From the NCBI GenBank assembly GCA_015231405.1, contig JADGBR010000004.1:64189-128188 (forward strand): DNA of 64,000 nucleotides. Reading direction: 5' to 3'. The first letter of the stretch is position 1. The number at the start of each line of letters is the position of its first letter. Positions 3,915 through 54,894 of the stretch are shown piece by piece. A model generated the notes under the pieces. It was not told the origin of the DNA and ran no database searches. It saw only the letters and a list, made by a program, of their open reading frames with translations. The stretch is from Candidatus Omnitrophota bacterium (GTDB lineage Bacteria > Omnitrophota > Gorgyraeia > Tantalellales > Tantalellaceae). A program made the position numbers and the translations under genes.

Positions 3915-5479
3915 TATCTCTTCTCCATATTTTTGAACATTTCGTTGACCTTTTCGGGCAGGAACATCTTCATTCTGTATTTCCTTTCGGCCGTCCATTT
4001 CCTTTCCTCAACAGAAAAACCCTCAAAAAGGTAGGCTTTGAAGGTCAAGGGGTGCGGGGATGAAGAAGCAAGGACCAGGCCTTTCGGGTCCTCTAATGGA
4101 AAATGGTCTTTCTTTATAGGAGACAAGAAATTCGTGTTGACGAGGAGCATAAGATCGTGGCCGGGACCGGTTTCCCATTGTTTGCCGGTCTCGTCTATCC
4201 TGGTTATCCGTTCTCTGGGGCAGTTTTTAGTATTCTTGTAAATGAAATATCGCGGATACTCTAAATCGAAATAGGCGCGGAAAAATATCAGGAAAGAGAT
4301 AATTGAGGTCCCCGCGACCGTCCAAACAGCTAACCTCCTCACACCCGGCAAAGAGATTTCCTTTATCGCCAAGACGAGAGCGATCACAAGCATCGGGATG
4401 TAAAAATGTATAAGCCTGCCGTAAAACACCACTTTATTGAAGAAGACACCCAGGATGCCGTGATAAAGATACAGGATAAGCGCGGCGGTTATGACGCTTT
4501 TATCGGGAGTGAATTTAAGAATATCTTTTCGTGTGCGGGATATCACATAGGCGAGAAAGCCGCATATAAGGATAGCACCCGCCGGTCCCTCGACCTGGAG
4601 AAGATATTTAACGATAAATACAAGGCTTTCGCTGAAAGTCCCCTGGGTGGCTGTTCCGCTGAGCTGAGCGAGATCGGCTAAATAGGGACGCCCGGCTATC
4701 CGCGAGATCACCTCGGTTATCGAAATAACACAACCGGCGGAAACAAAATATACCAGTATGCCGGGCAATATTCTGTCTTTAAGCAAAATGAAAACTATCC
4801 CGAAGAACGCTAAAATATTGCAGTAACCCGGATAGACCAGGAACGATAACGCGCTTAAAATACCGCATAACGCGTAGATCGATATCCCGGGTTCTTTGAC
4901 GGCCCTGACCCTGAGATACAGATACAGCGCAAGAAAAAAAATGGAAATAGCCATATCGTACGGGAAAATATGACGCAAATAAATATTTGAGTTACAGAGA
5001 AGAGCATACACTCCCGCGCCCAGGAATGATATCCTCCTTTCCCCGGAGAGCACGAAGATGATCCTGTAAAACAAGTAAAGCGCCCCGACAGAGACCGCCA
5101 CGTTAAAAAAACTGACGACACAAGGGAAATGATAACCGTACGGCGTTATAAGCCGCAGTTTTACGAGCAGTTGCTGCACTGCCGCTATCGGGATACAAGC
5201 GGCGATGAACCCGGGCCTTCCCTGGGAGTGGAACATATTGTAAAACGCGTCCCGAAAATGCCCATCTACCAGGGCCCCATACGCCTTATAAACCATATTG
5301 TACCTGAATTCGTCCGGAAAGAAGAACTGGCCTTTGTTTATTAGCGACAACCGAAGCAGAAACACGACCAGCAATAGAACAAATGTAAGAGAACCCCTAA
5401 CGAAAGGTTTCTGAAATGATATCATAATTCTATTTCGCTTCATAAAGGCCTTGGCAATTGCCCCATAAAATCTCGCCAT
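3914..5479 (-). CDS. Polytopic membrane glycosyltransferase, GT-C fold (ArnT/PMT-like, GT39/GT83-type)
   Basis: 521 aa and more than 10 predicted TM helices. FFFPDEFRY (a DE motif) lies in the first predicted periplasmic loop, and the C-terminal ~100 aa is soluble. The start is possibly at M19 (5425) rather than 5479, which would avoid overlap with the next gene. Confidence 0.55.
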   Translation of the reverse strand: MARFYGAIAKAFMKRNRIMISFQKPFVRGSLTFVLLLVVFLLRLSLINKGQFFFPDEFRYNMVYKAYGALVDGHFRDAFYNMFHSQGRPGFIAACIPIAAVQQLLVKLRLITPYGYHFPCVVSFFNVAVSVGALYLFYRIIFVLSGERRISFLGAGVYALLCNSNIYLRHIFPYDMAISIFFLALYLYLRVRAVKEPGISIYALCGILSALSFLVYPGYCNILAFFGIVFILLKDRILPGILVYFVSAGCVISITEVISRIAGRPYLADLAQLSGTATQGTFSESLVFIVKYLLQVEGPAGAILICGFLAYVISRTRKDILKFTPDKSVITAALILYLYHGILGVFFNKVVFYGRLIHFYIPMLVIALVLAIKEISLPGVRRLAVWTVAGTSIISFLIFFRAYFDLEYPRYFIYKNTKNCPRERITRIDETGKQWETGPGHDLMLLVNTNFLSPIKKDHFPLEDPKGLVLASSSPHPLTFKAYLFEGFSVEERKWTAERKYRMKMFLPEKVNEMFKNMEKR

Positions 5480-35702: not shown

Positions 35703-35977
35703 GTTCAGTTGTGGAACGGAACACCGTCATTGCGAGGAGCGAAGCGACGAAGCAATCCCAACACTCTCATTAGAGTACCTTTTAATTCCTTCAGTTCTTT
35801 TTCATATTGGCTGCAATCCTTGCAACCGGTCAAATGATATGCTCCCTTTTTGCATGGAGAATATCATAGATATTTCAATTCGCAAGTATTCGGATATTTT
35901 TGCAGGGATTGCTTCGTCGGCCTGCGGGCCTCCTCGCAATGACACCAAGGCGCCCTTATCGCTGCCATAACTGAACT
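35703..35977. mobile_element. MITE-like non-autonomous element, copy A (~275 bp) with ~60-bp imperfect terminal inverted repeats
   Basis: The left TIR AGTTCAGTTGTGGAACGG...CGTCATTGCGAGGAGCGAAGCGACGAAGCAATCCC is the reverse complement of the right TIR GGGATTGCTTCGTCGGCC...CCTCGCAATGAC...AACTGAACT. It is non-coding. Confidence 0.6.
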
Positions 35978-40184: not shown

Positions 40185-40219
40185 GGGGATTGCTTCGTCG
40201 CTTCGCTCCTCGCAATGAC
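40185..40219 (+). repeat. Solo copy of the 35-38-nt MITE core motif GGGATTGCTTCGTCG-N-CTCCTCGCAATGAC
   Basis: It is identical in its arms to the TIR cores of elements A and B. It lies just upstream of, and partly overlaps, the annotated start of the next GT-C gene. Confidence 0.6.
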
Positions 40220-40227
40220 GGCGGTTC

Positions 40228-52984: not shown

Positions 52985-53209
52985 CTTTCAGTTGCGGGAC
53001 ATACCGCCGTCATCGCGAGGAGCGAAGCGACGAAGCGATCTCAACAGATAACCTAAGTAGGAACCTTTCGAAGAACTTCGATTTGCTTGGAGTATATCTT
53101 AGTTATTTTAATTCGCAAGTATTCGGATATTTTTGTAGGGATTGCTTCGTCGGCCTCATGGCCCCTCGCAATGACGACACGGCGCCTTAATCGCTACCGC
53201 AACTGAACT
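52985..53209. mobile_element. MITE-like element copy B (~225 bp), same family as 35703-35977
   Basis: The left TIR is CTTTCAGTTGCGGGAC...CGTCATCGCGAGGAGCGAAGCGACGAAGCGATCTC. The right TIR is GGGATTGCTTCGTCGGCCTCATGGCCCCTCGCAATGAC...AACTGAACT. The internal segment shares TTAATTCGCAAGTATTCGGATATTTTTG with copy A. Confidence 0.6.
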
Positions 53210-53232
53210 ATTACGACAGCTGATAGCTAAGT

Positions 53233-54894
53233 TCATAAATATCCCAGGCTTTTTATCTTCTCCGTGTCGGCGTCATCGCCTTTCCGGGATATCCTTTTGA
53301 TCAAAACTCCGGACATCGACCTGAAATATCCTTCCATCCGCTTAAGAAGCTTTTCGTATATCGTGGAATACGCGGCATTCGCGGCCAGGTCCTGTTGCTC
53401 CAGCGGGTCGGCGGCAAGGTCGTACAGTTCAGGTCTCACGGACTTAAGCTCTTCCCTCGTAATGATGAGCTTGAACCCGTCCTCGACGAGCGCAGCGTGG
53501 TTGAATGCCTGAACGAAAAATATGTAGTCTTTCGGAGGCCTCGCGCCGTTCTTATCGCCGTTATCGCCCGGTTTTCTCAGCCTCAGCCCGTCGGAAGTAT
53601 GAGAAAAAACAAAATACGCCCCCGGCAAAACTATCTTACTTCCGGTCTTTATCATGTTCCAGTAAGAGATCCCGTCGATCTTCACTCCCAGCTCTATGCC
53701 AAGATACTCGAGAAGCGTCGGCATTATATCCGCCCCGGTTATCCCTGGAATTATCCGTTTCTGAGAAACACCCGGAAATTTCATGATAAGAGGGACATCG
53801 AGTGAGGCGTTGTACAGATATTTGTGATGCCCGAAATAGTTCGCTTTCTCGTAAAGGATCTCTCCATGGTCCGAGGTTATTATGATAGCGGTATTGTCGT
53901 AGAGCCCTTTTTCCTTAAGTTTGTCTGTCACTTTCCCGACGAGATCGTCGGCGAACGCTATTTCGCCGTCATAGGCGTTACGCATGGCTTTCACTTTATT
54001 TTCGGGGATCCCCTCTCCCGAAAAAGTAAGCTCCTCCTTCGCCAAGGCTTCGGAGGACAGGCCCTCCTTCGCCAAGGCTTCGGAGGACAGGCTCTCCTTC
54101 GCCAAGGCTTCGGAGGACAGGCTCTCCTCGTCATTCTTCTCTTCTTTAATATGTGTCTTATAATCCGGGTCGAACTCTAGTCCAAACTTCTCGGGAGGGT
54201 CATAAGGAAGATGCGGGTCGTAAAGGTGCAGCCACATGAAGAATTTCTTATCGCCGTTACCGTCAAGCCATCCCAGCGCCTCGCCGGTTGTTATATCCCC
54301 TGTTCTAAATAGCTGTTTATCTTCGGCGTCGAGATCGGAAAACGCGTCAAATCCCTGGCTGAAACCATTAGCGGCCCCCACGAGCCTTGTGCTCACAAAA
54401 CCCGCGGTAACATAGCCGTTACGTTTCATGACCTCGGCCAGCGTGGTGAATTTGTTATCCAAGCTATAAGCGTTCCGGTAGACAAGGTGCGACGCGGGAT
54501 AAAGTCCGGTCATTATCGTGCTATGCGAAGGAGTTGTCATGGGGATCGTTGTTATCGCCCCGTCAAAGACCACCGACTCAGCGGCTATCTTATCAATGTT
54601 CGGCGTCGTCCCGCGCCCGTACCCATAACACCCGAAACGGTCCTTTCTGGCAGTATCAATGACCACCAGAAGAACGTTAGGCCTGTCCTCCGAAGCCTCG
54701 GCGAAGGAGGGCCTGTCCTCCGAAGCCTCGGCGAAGGAGGGCCTGTCCTCCGAAGCCTCGCTTGTCCCGGGGGAAACCGGTGGGGCGAAGGAGGACCTGT
54801 CCTCTTCCGATATCGCCCAGCGCCAGTTAATAAACATCATTAACGCCAGAAAGATACCGGGTAATATGGAAAATCGACTTTTTCTCATGATCAT
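53233..54894 (-). CDS. Sulfatase-like hydrolase/transferase (alkaline-phosphatase superfamily) with signal peptide/TM anchor and two internal tandem-repeat insertions
   Basis: 553 aa. The N-terminus is hydrophobic. NVLLVVIDTARKDRFGCYGY is the metal-binding region. The nucleophile motif TTPSHSTIMTG has Thr where true sulfatases have Cys/Ser-x-P-x-R. There are low-complexity repeats SFAEASEDRP x3 and SSEALAKE(S/G)L x3. Confidence 0.7.
   Translation of the reverse strand: MIMRKSRFSILPGIFLALMMFINWRWAISEEDRSSFAPPVSPGTSEASEDRPSFAEASEDRPSFAEASEDRPNVLLVVIDTARKDRFGCYGYGRGTTPNIDKIAAESVVFDGAITTIPMTTPSHSTIMTGLYPASHLVYRNAYSLDNKFTTLAEVMKRNGYVTAGFVSTRLVGAANGFSQGFDAFSDLDAEDKQLFRTGDITTGEALGWLDGNGDKKFFMWLHLYDPHLPYDPPEKFGLEFDPDYKTHIKEEKNDEESLSSEALAKESLSSEALAKEGLSSEALAKEELTFSGEGIPENKVKAMRNAYDGEIAFADDLVGKVTDKLKEKGLYDNTAIIITSDHGEILYEKANYFGHHKYLYNASLDVPLIMKFPGVSQKRIIPGITGADIMPTLLEYLGIELGVKIDGISYWNMIKTGSKIVLPGAYFVFSHTSDGLRLRKPGDNGDKNGARPPKDYIFFVQAFNHAALVEDGFKLIITREELKSVRPELYDLAADPLEQQDLAANAAYSTIYEKLLKRMEGYFRSMSGVLIKRISRKGDDADTEKIKSLGYL
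54031..54130. repeat. 30-bp tandem repeat x3.3 inside the sulfatase-like CDS (unit CTCCTTCGCCAAGGCTTCGGAGGACAGGCC)
   Basis: Direct inspection. It encodes SSEALAKE(S/G)L repeats. It is the inverted complement of the array at 54681-54804. Confidence 0.85.
54681..54804. repeat. 30-bp tandem repeat x3+ inside the sulfatase-like CDS (unit GCCTGTCCTCCGAAGCCTCGGCGAAGGAGG), inverted relative to the array at 54031-54130
   Basis: Direct inspection. The unit is 28/30 identical to the reverse complement of the other array. It encodes SFAEASEDRP repeats. Confidence 0.85.

Follow-up and report, generated by a model that had tools for sequence, protein, structure and literature searches.

The host gene and its product

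The two repeat arrays described here lie within a single gene on the minus strand of the window, by which the whole 64-kb stretch of DNA analysed is meant. The ORF (53233..54894) encodes a membrane-anchored protein of 553 aa with the fold of the sulfatase / alkaline-phosphatase superfamily. The database version of the protein starts at M3 and is 551 aa long. The homologue search returned only one match of 100% identity, P0001, annotated 'MAG: sulfatase [Candidatus Omnitrophica bacterium]'. The window sequence stems from a single MAG assembly, and an exact-protein look-up in the contig collection, with the window protein as well as the NCBI form, gave no further contig.

Pfam and Foldseek agreed on the fold. 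The PF00884 Sulfatase match covered residues 72-400 (E=3.6e-55), and the AlphaFold2 model, with a mean pLDDT of 82.6 and values above 90 in the core, had its best PDB match in 4uph (E=4.3e-29), the top matches being phosphonate monoester hydrolase and sulfatases with E-values of about 1e-29 to 1e-25. The C/S-x-P-x-R formylglycine signature was absent from the protein. At the aligned positions it reads T120-T-P-S-H124, opposite A-S-P-A-R of 4uph, and in an alignment of 13 family members T120, P122, S123 and H124 were invariant. Judged by its sequence, the protein is sulfatase-like in fold only, and it may use a Thr nucleophile of the kind found in superfamily phosphodiesterases and phosphotransferases. 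An annotation as a sulfatase-fold enzyme, but no formylglycine sulfatase, would be due.

The segment between the two arrays (54129..54681, minus strand) encodes the N-terminal half of the catalytic domain with the metal-ligand region and the putative nucleophile T120; the invariant residues D80, T81, T120, P122, S123 and H124 are all encoded here. A flip of this segment would turn it antisense to the rest of the gene. The host gene adjoins a surface-glycan biosynthesis cluster.

Anatomy of the two arrays

A sequence-only reading of this DNA had reported two mutually inverted 30-bp arrays within one sulfatase-like ORF, and the repeat search agreed with it. The inverted arms 54045-54122 and 54681-54758 are 78 nt long, 96% complementary and spaced by 558 nt, and the pair lies wholly within the single ORF 53233-54894, which is the geometry of an intragenic inverton. 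Tandem Repeats Finder placed array 1 at 54033-54128 (period 30, 3.2 copies, 98% matches, score 178) and array 2 at 54680-54760 (period 30, 2.7 copies, 100% matches, score 162). By allowing up to 3 mismatches, the 30-mer was found in five places only in the 64 kb, all of them in the arrays, and it had 0 matches in 100 dinucleotide-preserving shuffles.

The repeated unit is a 30-nt cassette composed of a head CnTGYCC, a 20-nt core TCCGAAGCCTYGGCGAAGGA and a tail GGR. Array 1 (54032..54128, minus strand) contains three complete cassettes at 54032-54061, 54062-54091 and 54092-54121 and a 7-nt partial unit extending to 54128, and its cassette sense lies on the coding (minus) strand. In array 2 the cassette sense is on the plus strand and the cassettes are therefore antisense to the host gene. 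Its intact part (54682..54741) holds two complete cassettes of the form CCTGTCC, core and GGG. The third cassette (54742..54795, plus strand) is interrupted exactly in the apical loop, between ...GAAGCCTC and GGCGAAGGA..., by an in-frame insert of 24 nt (54760..54783, plus strand), GCTTGTCCCGGGGGAAACCGGTGG. This insert has the CTTGTCC head seen in the cassette family, encodes PPVSPGTS and may itself be a nested cassette. A fourth unit (54796..54804, plus strand) is partial and consists of a degenerate cassette head, CCTGTCCTC; the repeat search recorded a degenerate further copy at 54784-54804 (95%). The head variant CCTGTCC and the tail GGG are common to both arrays, whereas one base is private to each, CCTTGG being present in every array-1 unit and CCTCGG in every array-2 unit. 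The longest perfectly identical run between the arrays is at most 29 nt, and comparison of the unit with its reverse complement gives about 63% identity.

Translation of the 553-aa ORF was in agreement with the earlier claim that both arrays are in frame and encode SSEALAKE(S/G) and SFAEASEDRP peptides. Array 1 is translated as (E/G)SLSSEALAKE three times in a surface loop (residues about 256-288) whose length differs in all homologues, and array 2 as RPSFAEASED twice in the linker past the membrane anchor. That these acidic low-complexity peptides occupy a post-anchor linker and a surface loop was likewise borne out. The array 2 region (residues 33-66, after the helix 11-31) had a pLDDT below 50 and the array 1 region (residues about 255-290) one of 52-63, with short helices predicted in the latter, and both sites were gapped or length-variable in an alignment of 12 homologues. 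The arrays are thus placed in low-confidence, non-conserved regions of the host protein. Since the unit is 30 nt long and in frame, a change in copy number affects linker length only, and the arrays do not constitute a frameshift contingency locus.

Orthologues and homologues

Among the 120 best homologues, the cassette was detected only in the source protein and, as a variant unit, in the orthologue P0002. The orthologue is 68% identical to the host protein; at its N-terminal site there is only one unit, which has the opposite orientation. The cassette is absent from its surface loop, which contains the unrelated sequence (AAGGGTC)x4.1. With one unit at the first site and none at the second, the orthologue bears out the suggested change in copy number, here over evolutionary time. 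The head of the orthologue unit, GCTTGTCT, is similar to that of the window arrays, and a partial antisense half-unit, GGCTTCGAAGG, abuts the sense unit in a fold-back-like arrangement. The cassette was found at this same N-terminal site of the orthologue in two independent samples, one from JGI and one from Logan.

A dispersed family of hairpin cassettes

The 20-nt core TCCGAAGCCTYGGCGAAGGA was present in at least 120 stretches of genome_contigs and at least 120 of metagenome_contigs, compared with a chance expectation of about 2-4 in 596 Gb by hand estimate. Distinct flanks were seen in 234 of 238 cassette matches among the matches listed. Near-identical copies thus occur at more than 240 loci, in many phyla and in both orientations, and the window unit CCTGTCC, core and GGG fits the family consensus at all 30 nt. 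This does not accord with the view of the sequence-only reading that the arrays arose by a recent intragenic duplication-inversion, the unit being the full cassette found at all these loci. The hosts among the matches listed included Verrucomicrobiota/Opitutaceae, Patescibacteria, Alphaproteobacteria (with isolate Mesorhizobium species), Bacteroidales, Planctomycetota, Kiritimatiellia, Acidobacteriota, Nitrospirota and Omnitrophota. At least 39 other loci had two or more cassettes within a few kb, some of them in tandem (spacing of about 30-48 nt) or inverted. A neutral model of selfish DNA does not account for a 20-nt core that stays identical from phylum to phylum, and this identity hints at constraint or function.

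The cassette is predicted to fold as a single strand into a closing stem, a GAA-GAA internal loop, a GC-GC stretch and a YUYG loop, with a consensus fold of -19.6 kcal/mol. Among the matches listed, the stem extended at least 3 bp past the core in 202 of 246, and the pair at positions -3/+22 was C-G in 112 and T-A in 86, pairing in 93% against 66% after shuffling. Stem extension, covariation at -3/+22 and the consensus fold together identify the cassette as hairpin-forming. A conserved head lies beside the stem in a REP-like manner, with frequencies among the matches listed of 62% for T(-5), 78% for G(-4), 94% for Y(-3), 88% for C(-2) and 88% for C(-1). No stop codon is present in any of the six frames.

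Single cassettes were sometimes located 3′ of tRNA genes and before T-runs, like a terminator (L004, L178). A role as terminator is plausible at these few post-tRNA sites only and was rejected as the general one because, among the matches listed, a T-run within 20 nt was found downstream in only 18 of 246 and on the other strand in 13 of 246. No Rfam family accounts for the cassette. An Rfam search (E-value mode) of the window locus and nine cassette loci returned tRNAs, noise and one Acido-Lenti-1 match that lies off the cassette. Neither was the cassette traced to phages or plasmids, as blastn with the 34-nt consensus gave no phage match and five weak partial plasmid matches, none of them full-length at high identity.

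Literature searches by sequence and peptide returned nothing for the core, its reverse complement, SFAKASE, LRSLGEGG, SEALAKEG or LRQGFGG, and a keyword search on in-frame palindromic hairpin insertions in metagenomes gave nothing relevant; no description of the 30-nt cassette was found in the literature searched by sequence, peptide and keyword. A phmmer search with the array-1 peptide against 1.84 billion representatives gave 34 matches, mostly unrelated low-complexity repeats. The only cassette arrays among them were in P0247, P0249 and P0252, which are short ORFs of 68-143 aa. Arrays of three copies are rare inside real enzymes, and the host gene is therefore atypical for the cassette family.

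In-frame insertions in other genes

The boundaries of the cassette could be read from genes in which filled and empty sites coexist among relatives. In CTP synthase the filled site GGCCTA[CTTGTCC-core-GGA]TGGGA corresponds to the empty site GGCCTA|TGGGA, and in RF2 the additional 30 nt are [CTTGCCC-core-TGG]. CTTG microhomology leaves the RF2 boundary uncertain by 1-4 nt. These independent empty/filled pairs gave the same 30-nt boundaries, the two proteins had exact 10-residue gaps relative to solved homologues (9fy1 for RF2 and 3nva for CTP synthase), and no target-site duplication was present in either pair. The cassette is in these two genes an in-frame 30-nt polymorphism with empty sites, evident at both the protein and the DNA level. 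The word insertion describes what presence/absence patterns of sequence suggest, since neither an enzyme nor a mechanism that would spread the cassette came to light.

Further cassette-bearing genes recognised by eye were those for Acs, RseP, GT1, GuaA, RecF, DprA, trigger factor, RNase R and HsdM. Among the matches listed, 81 of 246 lay well within open stretches that span 200 codons or more and include several verified genes, and across coding loci the cassette is read in all six frames. Among close relatives the same slot was empty, occupied by this cassette or occupied by another hairpin, and the CTTGYCC head was also found on a different cassette in RF2.

Comparison with known repeats

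RPEs have been described as palindromic repeats of about 100-150 bp in ten families confined to Rickettsia (PMC10969869). RPEs and the cassette are alike in being dispersed palindromic families present in frame in unrelated, often essential genes, where the added peptide is compatible with the fold and presence or absence differs between relatives. Unlike RPEs, the cassette measures 30 nt, is open in six frames, keeps one and the same 20-nt core in many phyla and forms, in the gene studied here, tandem arrays in both orientations. Its size, its Omnitrophota host and its cross-phylum spread exclude it from the RPE families, which are analogues only.

REPs are short imperfect palindromes with a GTAG head 5′ of the stem, occur in either orientation, clustered or in tandem, and are not known to show a target-site duplication; they lie outside genes, and each kind is limited to one species or genus. 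The cassette resembles REPs and BIMEs as a short imperfect palindrome with a conserved head (CnTGYCC) 5′ of its stem that likewise occurs in both orientations, clustered as well as tandem, and has no target-site duplication. It differs from REPs, which are served by IS200/IS605-like RAYT, in being often intragenic rather than extragenic and in crossing phyla, and, unlike in REP/RAYT systems, no RAYT gene was found within the 64-kb window, the stretch that was covered.

The window gene shares with described intragenic invertons the location of inverted repeats within one gene and a flip leading to a premature stop. Described invertons were validated in both orientations by reads or PCR and are presumed to be driven by an invertase, and a premature stop is one of their two described outcomes (Chanin et al., bioRxiv 10.1101/2023.03.11.532203). 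The window gene, unlike these, has no invertase nearby and is known from one assembly, and what is repeated in it is a dispersed cassette, copied in tandem, and not a dedicated recombination site. The remark in the earlier reading that this architecture had not been seen described is not supported, intragenic invertons (bioRxiv 10.1101/2023.03.11.532203) and in-frame RPEs (PMC10969869) having both been published.

The cassette is comparable to MITEs as a small non-autonomous repeat able to fuse in frame with host ORFs. It is several-fold shorter, at 30 nt, than known MITEs and has neither terminal inverted repeats around a distinct interior nor, in the two empty/filled pairs, a target-site duplication, and identity as a MITE was rejected on these grounds. 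Likeness to quasi-palindrome template switching is seen in the roughly 63% self-complementarity of the unit and in the fold-back-like half-unit of the orthologue, and likeness to minisatellite slippage in copy numbers of 1 versus 3-4 between orthologues. These processes remodel existing sequence, and neither explains the same 30-nt module in unrelated genes and phyla.

Origin of the arrays

The arrays in the host gene are probably tolerated copies of the dispersed hairpin cassette that were expanded by slippage. The unit is present at hundreds of sites, often in frame, and therefore points to tolerated insertions rather than to a built-in switch. Each array is a head-to-tail run of complete 30-nt hairpin cassettes. 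A cassette that is 30 nt long and open in six frames fits a coding region in either orientation and adds 10 residues per copy. Two structurally permissive sites of the host gene contain the cassette, in opposite orientations, and each now has 3-4 copies, to which slipped-strand mispairing, a process that the hairpin would favour, most likely expanded it. The peptides are presumably tolerated, disordered acidic spacers of neutral effect. The mutual inversion of the arrays would be a by-product and no device. How the cassette reaches new sites can be guessed at; a single-strand hairpin process of the REP/RAYT kind or templated copying at stalled forks might be responsible. Against this reading, the arrays share head and tail and the orthologue head is similar, so that the one array may have arisen from the other within the gene, as the earlier reading proposed. 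It also counts against it that no cassette copy beyond the arrays was present in the 64-kb window.

An alternative put forward earlier was inversion. In silico, inversion at each of three crossover points always gave an 84-aa product ending in a stop, and OFF is therefore the sole possible outcome. Of the proposed on/off or variant switching, an OFF state is thus conceivable and a variant protein is not. The 78 nt of 96% inverted homology make the gene physically recombinogenic, yet a flip would yield a null allele only. It is quite unlikely that the locus is a phase-variable intragenic inverton, turned ON and OFF in the population by a recombinase or by RecA, even though the 78-nt, 96% complementary pair does bracket 558 nt in one gene, premature-stop intragenic invertons exist (bioRxiv 10.1101/2023.03.11.532203), the adjacent surface-glycan biosynthesis cluster serves a function that is often phase-varied and the 7-nt repeat (x4) in the same loop of the orthologue could shift the frame by slippage. 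No alternative protein arises from the 84-aa truncation, and Pfam identified no recombinase, invertase, resolvase or transposase domain in the 67 ORFs across the 64-kb window. A T is fixed in all units of array 1 and a C in all units of array 2, which crossovers within the arrays would mix, and the longest identical stretch between the arrays (at most 29 nt) falls at the lower bound of homology for RecA-dependent exchange. A programmed switch is not supported, given that no recombinase was found in the window and that one base is fixed per array. Hundreds of unrelated contexts hold the cassette as a single copy, and in either direction, and the inverted arrangement therefore needs no special purpose; no special inversion switch is needed to account for the arrays in the host gene.

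A private duplication-inversion, in which template switching at a quasi-palindrome copied one array, both then expanded and any outside resemblance is incidental, is unlikely. The CCTGTCC...GGG variant common to both arrays, the partial self-complementarity of the unit (roughly 63%), a property conducive to strand switching, and the fold-back-like abutment of the orthologue half-unit GGCTTCGAAGG on a sense unit would fit it, but the unit agrees with the cross-phylum consensus at all 30 positions and its boundaries equal those of the RF2 and CTP synthase insertions. Such a duplication explains the origin of the second copy and not the identity of the unit, and therefore overlaps with slippage-expanded cassettes without replacing them. 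Selection for the peptides, as acidic 10-residue spacers or binding modules that set membrane distance or gate the active site, is very unlikely: one DNA unit yields two different peptides (SSEALAKE versus SFAEASEDRP), conservation across phyla is at the DNA level in six frames and not at the peptide level, the orthologue loop has unrelated sequence and model confidence is low over both arrays. The in-frame position of the arrays in one linker and one loop, the short helices in the array-1 region of the model and the presence of some insertion at both places in both orthologues speak for it. An element acting at the RNA level is highly improbable, whether the arrays pair in the mRNA as a duplex of about 95 bp or fold locally, for instance for control by RNase III. 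The MFE fold of 54010-54830 (minus strand) did pair the arrays end to end at -390.9 kcal/mol (z = -11.9 versus shuffles), and the single cassettes after tRNA genes and before T-runs (L004, L178) could be taken in the same sense. This pairing is an automatic outcome of an inverted repeat and does not show that it is used, a duplex of 550-nt range would face competition from translation and from hairpins that form locally during transcription, the orthologue has no second array, and T-runs within 20 nt were confined to 18 and 13 of 246 among the matches listed. We likewise give very little credence to an assembly artefact from mis-joined or mis-counted MAG repeats. Only a single MAG is available, look-ups found no second assembly of the organism, and de Bruijn graphs can miscount copies or pick an arbitrary orientation in arrays of this size (80-125 nt); nevertheless, the ORF is unbroken and remains collinear with 12 homologues across the two arrays, which keep the reading frame, and two independent samples (JGI, Logan) show the orthologue with the cassette at the same N-terminal site. 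An artefact could alter the copy number of the arrays and not their presence.

Beyond slippage-expanded copies in one gene, we tentatively consider it possible, though doubtful, that the cassette belongs to an undescribed cross-phylum family of hairpin cassettes of about 24-33 nt with a CTTGYCC head, which would insert in frame into protein-coding genes in both directions, with no target-site duplication, and would at fixed slots be expanded, loop-nested, flipped or exchanged for other cassettes. If true, a new mobile or templated element or a new mutational process continually adds peptides of 8-11 residues to bacterial proteins, essential ones included. The cassette, which recurs across phyla and is found in frame in essential genes including those for RF2 and CTP synthase, is possibly of more weight than the host gene. 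Should a common machinery move the cassettes, they would represent a widespread source of variation in protein length that has been overlooked, a confounder of gene calling in that many 'hypothetical proteins' would be translated hairpins, and a handle on a single-strand DNA process active in uncultivated lineages. The host gene, whose two slots contain seven units and a nested insert, would be the most heavily colonised example of this family so far.

Two inverted arrays in one gene

A single ORF on the minus strand (53233-54894, 553 aa) contains both arrays of the 30-nt unit. Tandem Repeats Finder placed array 1 at 54033-54128 (period 30, 3.2 copies, 98% matches) and array 2 at 54680-54760 (period 30, 2.7 copies, 100%), and the inverted arms, 54045-54122 and 54681-54758, are 78 nt long, 96% complementary and separated by 558 nt. 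These calls and the translations, KNDEESLSSEALAKESLSSEALAKEGLSSEALAKEELT for array 1 and ISEEDRSSFAPPVSPGTSEASEDRPSFAEASEDRPSFAEASEDRPN for array 2, confirm the proposal of a sequence-only reading that two mutually inverse 30-bp arrays lie in frame inside one ORF. Direct reading extended array 2 beyond the software call, to a third unit split by an insert (54742-54795) and, directly after it, a partial fourth unit (54796-54804). The in-frame 24-nt insert, GCTTGTCCCGGGGGAAACCGGTGG (54760-54783), interrupts the third cassette precisely at its apical loop and begins with CTTGTCC, the head of the cassette family described below, so that one cassette seems to be nested inside another. CCTTGG is found in every array-1 unit versus CCTCGG in every array-2 unit. 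The unit had no match outside the arrays in the 64 kb, and none was seen in 100 shuffles.

The host protein matched the Pfam Sulfatase family (E=3.6e-55) and was 100% identical to a database protein named 'sulfatase' on a 130-kb contig of a Candidatus Omnitrophica MAG. A structure search of the PDB with its AlphaFold2 model (44-sequence alignment, mean pLDDT 82.6) found phosphonate monoester hydrolases and sulfatases (4uph, E=4.3e-29), as did a search by sequence. The term 'sulfatase-like' is correct for the fold, but a formylglycine sulfatase is unlikely. Where sulfatases have C/S-x-P-x-R, the alignment of homologues has T120-T-P-S-H124, invariant across the subfamily (T120-x-P122-S123-H124; 54535-54549, residues 116-124; alignment A1); in terms of function, the database name is probably a misnomer. 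The invariant T120 points to a Thr nucleophile like that of the superfamily's phosphodiesterase and phosphotransferase branches.

Array 2 occupies residues ~33-72, immediately after a predicted membrane helix (residues 11-31), and array 1 residues ~256-288, in a segment that varies in length across every homologue aligned. In the model, pLDDT was below 50 for residues 33-66, 52-63 for array 1 and above 90 for the catalytic core. Low pLDDT at both sites and the variable segment at array 1 support the suggested placement in a linker and a surface loop, and both sites are permissive.

The unit is a dispersed hairpin cassette

The 20-nt core of the unit, TCCGAAGCCTYGGCGAAGGA, was found in at least 120 stretches in GTDB species genomes and at least 120 in JGI metagenomes, with a chance expectation, estimated by hand, of ~2-4 matches in 596 Gb. 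Among the matches listed there were 246 core matches with 234 distinct flanks, and the hosts were Opitutaceae and other Verrucomicrobiota, Brevifollis, Patescibacteria, Bacteroidales, Planctomycetota, Kiritimatiellia, Acidobacteriota, Nitrospirota, another Omnitrophota genome and Alphaproteobacteria, with isolate Mesorhizobium species, Plastoroseomonas and Taklimakanibacter as examples of the last. The flanks revealed an element longer than the core, with a head c-n-T-G-Y-C-C that pairs with a tail G-G-R; in 202 of the 246 matches listed, three or more base pairs lengthened the stem beyond the core. Covariation was evident at positions -3/+22, with C-G in 112 and T-A in 86 of the matches listed (93% paired versus 66% when shuffled). 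The consensus folds at -19.6 kcal/mol into a closing stem, a 3x3 GAA-GAA internal loop, GC-GC and a YUYG loop. The unit is not private to the host gene: it is a dispersed hairpin cassette, which changes the interpretation of the arrays, both of which are exact head-to-tail runs of the complete cassette (CCTGTCC + core + GGG).

The cassette matched no Rfam family, was absent from the phage collection and was nearly absent from plasmids. A literature search found no paper containing the cassette sequence or its six peptide readings, and no description of the family.

Two or more copies (at most 4 mismatches) within a few kb were present at 39 other loci, including tandem pairs with 30-48-nt spacing (L014, L048, L084, L122, L216) and inverted pairs (L008, L082, L128, L227). 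Seven core copies (0-4 mismatches) lie in ~2 kb of the Taklimakanibacter lacteus isolate genome (L070, 3430-5470), and this cultured alphaproteobacterium could lend itself to work on the cassette. Three-copy arrays at two sites in a real enzyme are unusual even within the family, since the tandem pairs inspected were mostly non-coding and a search of 1.84 billion representative proteins with the array-1 peptide turned up comparable arrays in just three short ORFs.

Cassettes were also seen immediately 3′ of tRNA genes (L004 ~1829-1960, L047 ~4723-4860, L178 ~1880-2030, L021, L179 and L216). Those of L004 and L178, each followed by a T-run, may be transcription terminators.

In-frame insertions in other genes

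All six frames of the cassette are free of stop codons, and each of the readings (SEALAKE, PKPWRR, RSLGEG, SFAKASE, PSPRLR and LRQGFG) was found in long open stretches. Open stretches of at least 200 codons held 52% of the cassette matches versus 72% of random positions in the same loci, and 81 of the matches listed lay deep inside such stretches. Many of these stretches could be recognised by eye as housekeeping genes, namely those for acetyl-CoA synthetase, RseP, a GT1 glycosyltransferase, GMP synthase, RecF, DprA, trigger factor, RNase R and HsdM.

In two further genes the cassette is polymorphic as a precise in-frame insertion of 30 nt. Relative to the solved structures, an exact 10-residue gap coincided with the cassette in CTP synthase (3nva; ...KAY[LSSEALAKED]G...) and in RF2 (9fy1; ...EGP[SFAKASEGKQ]GPYG...). 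Among patescibacterial CTP synthases of 78-94% identity, one site was empty in P0131 and P0133, held the cassette in P0121 and P0143, and otherwise held other sequences, in P0122 the perfect 12-bp-stem hairpin CTCCAAAATTGCTTCGCAATTTTGGAG. The empty DNA reads GGCCTA|TGGGA and the filled GGCCTA[CTTGTCCTCCGAAGCCTTGGCGAAGGAGGA]TGGGA, a difference of exactly 30 nt, and comparison of these alleles showed no target-site duplication. Presence/absence blocks occurred at four other CTP synthase sites, five in all (L183, L243, L244, L245; alignment A4). One block is of 48 nt after K-K-T-K, others elsewhere are of 12 to ~50 residues, and at the C-terminus a terminator-like hairpin is read through. The inserted DNA examined was mostly hairpin-forming, and one slot held different cassettes by lineage.

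In RF2, the empty P0278 and the filled L029 differ by [CTTGCCC-core-TGG], 30 nt, with a boundary ambiguous by 1-4 nt owing to CTTG microhomology. In a third allele, P0277, the cassette is 33 nt long and differs in its middle part, but has the same CTTGTCC head and CGAAGGA tail. Across Patescibacteria (L029, L246, L247, L248; relatives ~75-82% identical) the slot was either empty (EG-KGAYG) or filled with PSFAKASEGKQ, NPSTRSARSGQ, KPSTSSGQ, KPSTGLSPG or KASPPAG. All filled alleles have the flank QGPYG in common, which suggests that cassettes were exchanged at an occupied slot rather than each inserted independently. These cassettes and the 24-nt insert in array 2 appear to be members of a wider family with a common head that occupy, or swap at, fixed slots.

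Evolutionary history of the arrays

The closest relative of the host protein, P0002 (68% identical, 519 aa), was recovered from two independent samples (L001, L002). Its N-terminal site contains one unit in the opposite orientation (GLSSEALAKDG on the sense strand), matching the window unit at 27/30 positions, with an antisense, fold-back-like half-unit, GGCTTCGAAGG, ahead of it. The internal loop has no cassette unit; where array 1 sits in the window gene there is a perfect heptanucleotide repeat, (AAGGGTC)x4.1, at L001 2793-2821, identical in L001 and L002. No long inverted repeats were found in the P0002 gene, and the remaining 118 best homologues of the host gene had no unit. With one flipped unit and none in the loop in P0002, and no unit in the others, the arrays are lineage-specific; the N-terminal site is occupied in both orthologues, but its content has turned over.

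The heptanucleotide repeat is itself a candidate phase-variable tract, since slippage of a 7-nt unit, not a multiple of three, would shift the frame. Further 7-nt runs, (AGCTTTC)n and (AGCTGAA)n, follow right after the orthologue's stop codon (L001 3646-3768), and in the window the sequence just 3′ of the host-gene stop retains no more than a short remnant related to them, cagctgatagct (53190-53232).

The history may be depicted as follows. The N-terminal slot would already have been occupied in the common ancestor of both orthologues, its orientation and copy number being turned over later, and the loop slot would have been filled only in the window's lineage, either from another genomic copy or from the N-terminal slot, a possible source because the arrays share the CCTGTCC/GGG variant. 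Each array would then have been lengthened by slipped-strand mispairing, which hairpins promote. By analogy, the cassette may spread through REP-like handling by HUH (RAYT or IS200-like) enzymes on single-stranded DNA or, alternatively, may be copied from a template where replication forks stall. This history does not account for a core that is identical across phyla.

Switching and relation to known systems

The sequence-only reading had further regarded the segment between the arrays as a candidate for inversion or recombination, with on/off or variant switching. In-silico inversion with crossovers at three array points always gave an 84-residue product ending ...SSSFFSSLICVL* and turned the nucleophile-bearing half of the domain antisense; every product being this truncation, only OFF is possible, and variant switching was not borne out. 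No recombinase, invertase, resolvase or transposase domain was found in the 67 ORFs spanning the window. Crossovers inside the arrays are expected to mix CCTTGG and CCTCGG units, and no mixed array was seen in the assembled sequence; this same difference limits uninterrupted identity between the arrays to at most 29 nt. The minus-strand RNA of 54010-54830 is predicted to form a near-perfect ~95-bp duplex enclosing 550 nt (-390.9 kcal/mol, z = -11.9), a pairing that follows automatically from the inverted repeat. If it ever forms in vivo, this duplex could be a substrate for RNase III. Physically, RecA could now and then mediate an inversion, or the hairpins could drive a deletion, and the segment is recombinogenic in this weak sense; nothing in the one assembly indicates a programmed or used switch. 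The locus has the geometry that defines an intragenic inverton, but showed no functional hallmark of one among those that could be examined. A frameshifting contingency repeat was rejected for the arrays, the 30-nt unit being a multiple of three, and a MITE was rejected for the cassette, which has no TIR/TSD structure.

The observation of the arrays was confirmed and its interpretation borne out in part: the locus is a striking, though probably passive, example of one gene colonised twice by a dispersed hairpin cassette, and its interest lies more in the cassette family than in the putative switch. Like REP elements handled by HUH enzymes, the cassette has a conserved head beside its hairpin, shows no target duplication and seems to nest within a hairpin loop; though alike in architecture, it is often intragenic and cross-phylum. 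It is not one of the Rickettsia palindromic elements, being 30 nt versus about 150 bp long and neither Rickettsia-specific nor homologous to them. The cassette is placed with selfish palindromic DNA in coding sequence, a known kind, with a substantial chance that the process behind it is new.

Genomic neighbourhood

The host gene marks the edge of a large region devoted to surface-glycan biosynthesis, whose products include NeuB, an epimerase, glycosyltransferases, radical-SAM enzymes and an ABC exporter, and adjoins a divergent response-regulator gene, a neighbour kept on the orthologue's contig. Positions 1-52000 are mostly this cluster, with NeuB, CMP-sugar cytidylyltransferase, UDP-GlcNAc 2-epimerase, GDP-mannose dehydratase, several GT2/GT4 glycosyltransferases, an FkbM methyltransferase, ABC exporters, a weak sulfotransferase match and five radical-SAM enzymes, three of them with B12-binding domains.

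Three intergenic gaps of the window share a second dispersed palindromic word, CCGTCATTGCGAGGAGCGAAGCGACGAAGCAATCCC, at 35724-35759, 40186-40221 (reverse complement) and 53003-53046 (partner 53134-53180), and two of the copies match at 100% identity. Its GCGAAGC motif forms a DNA mini-hairpin of unusual stability, and the word looks like a REP-like family of the window's genome, separate from the in-gene cassette.
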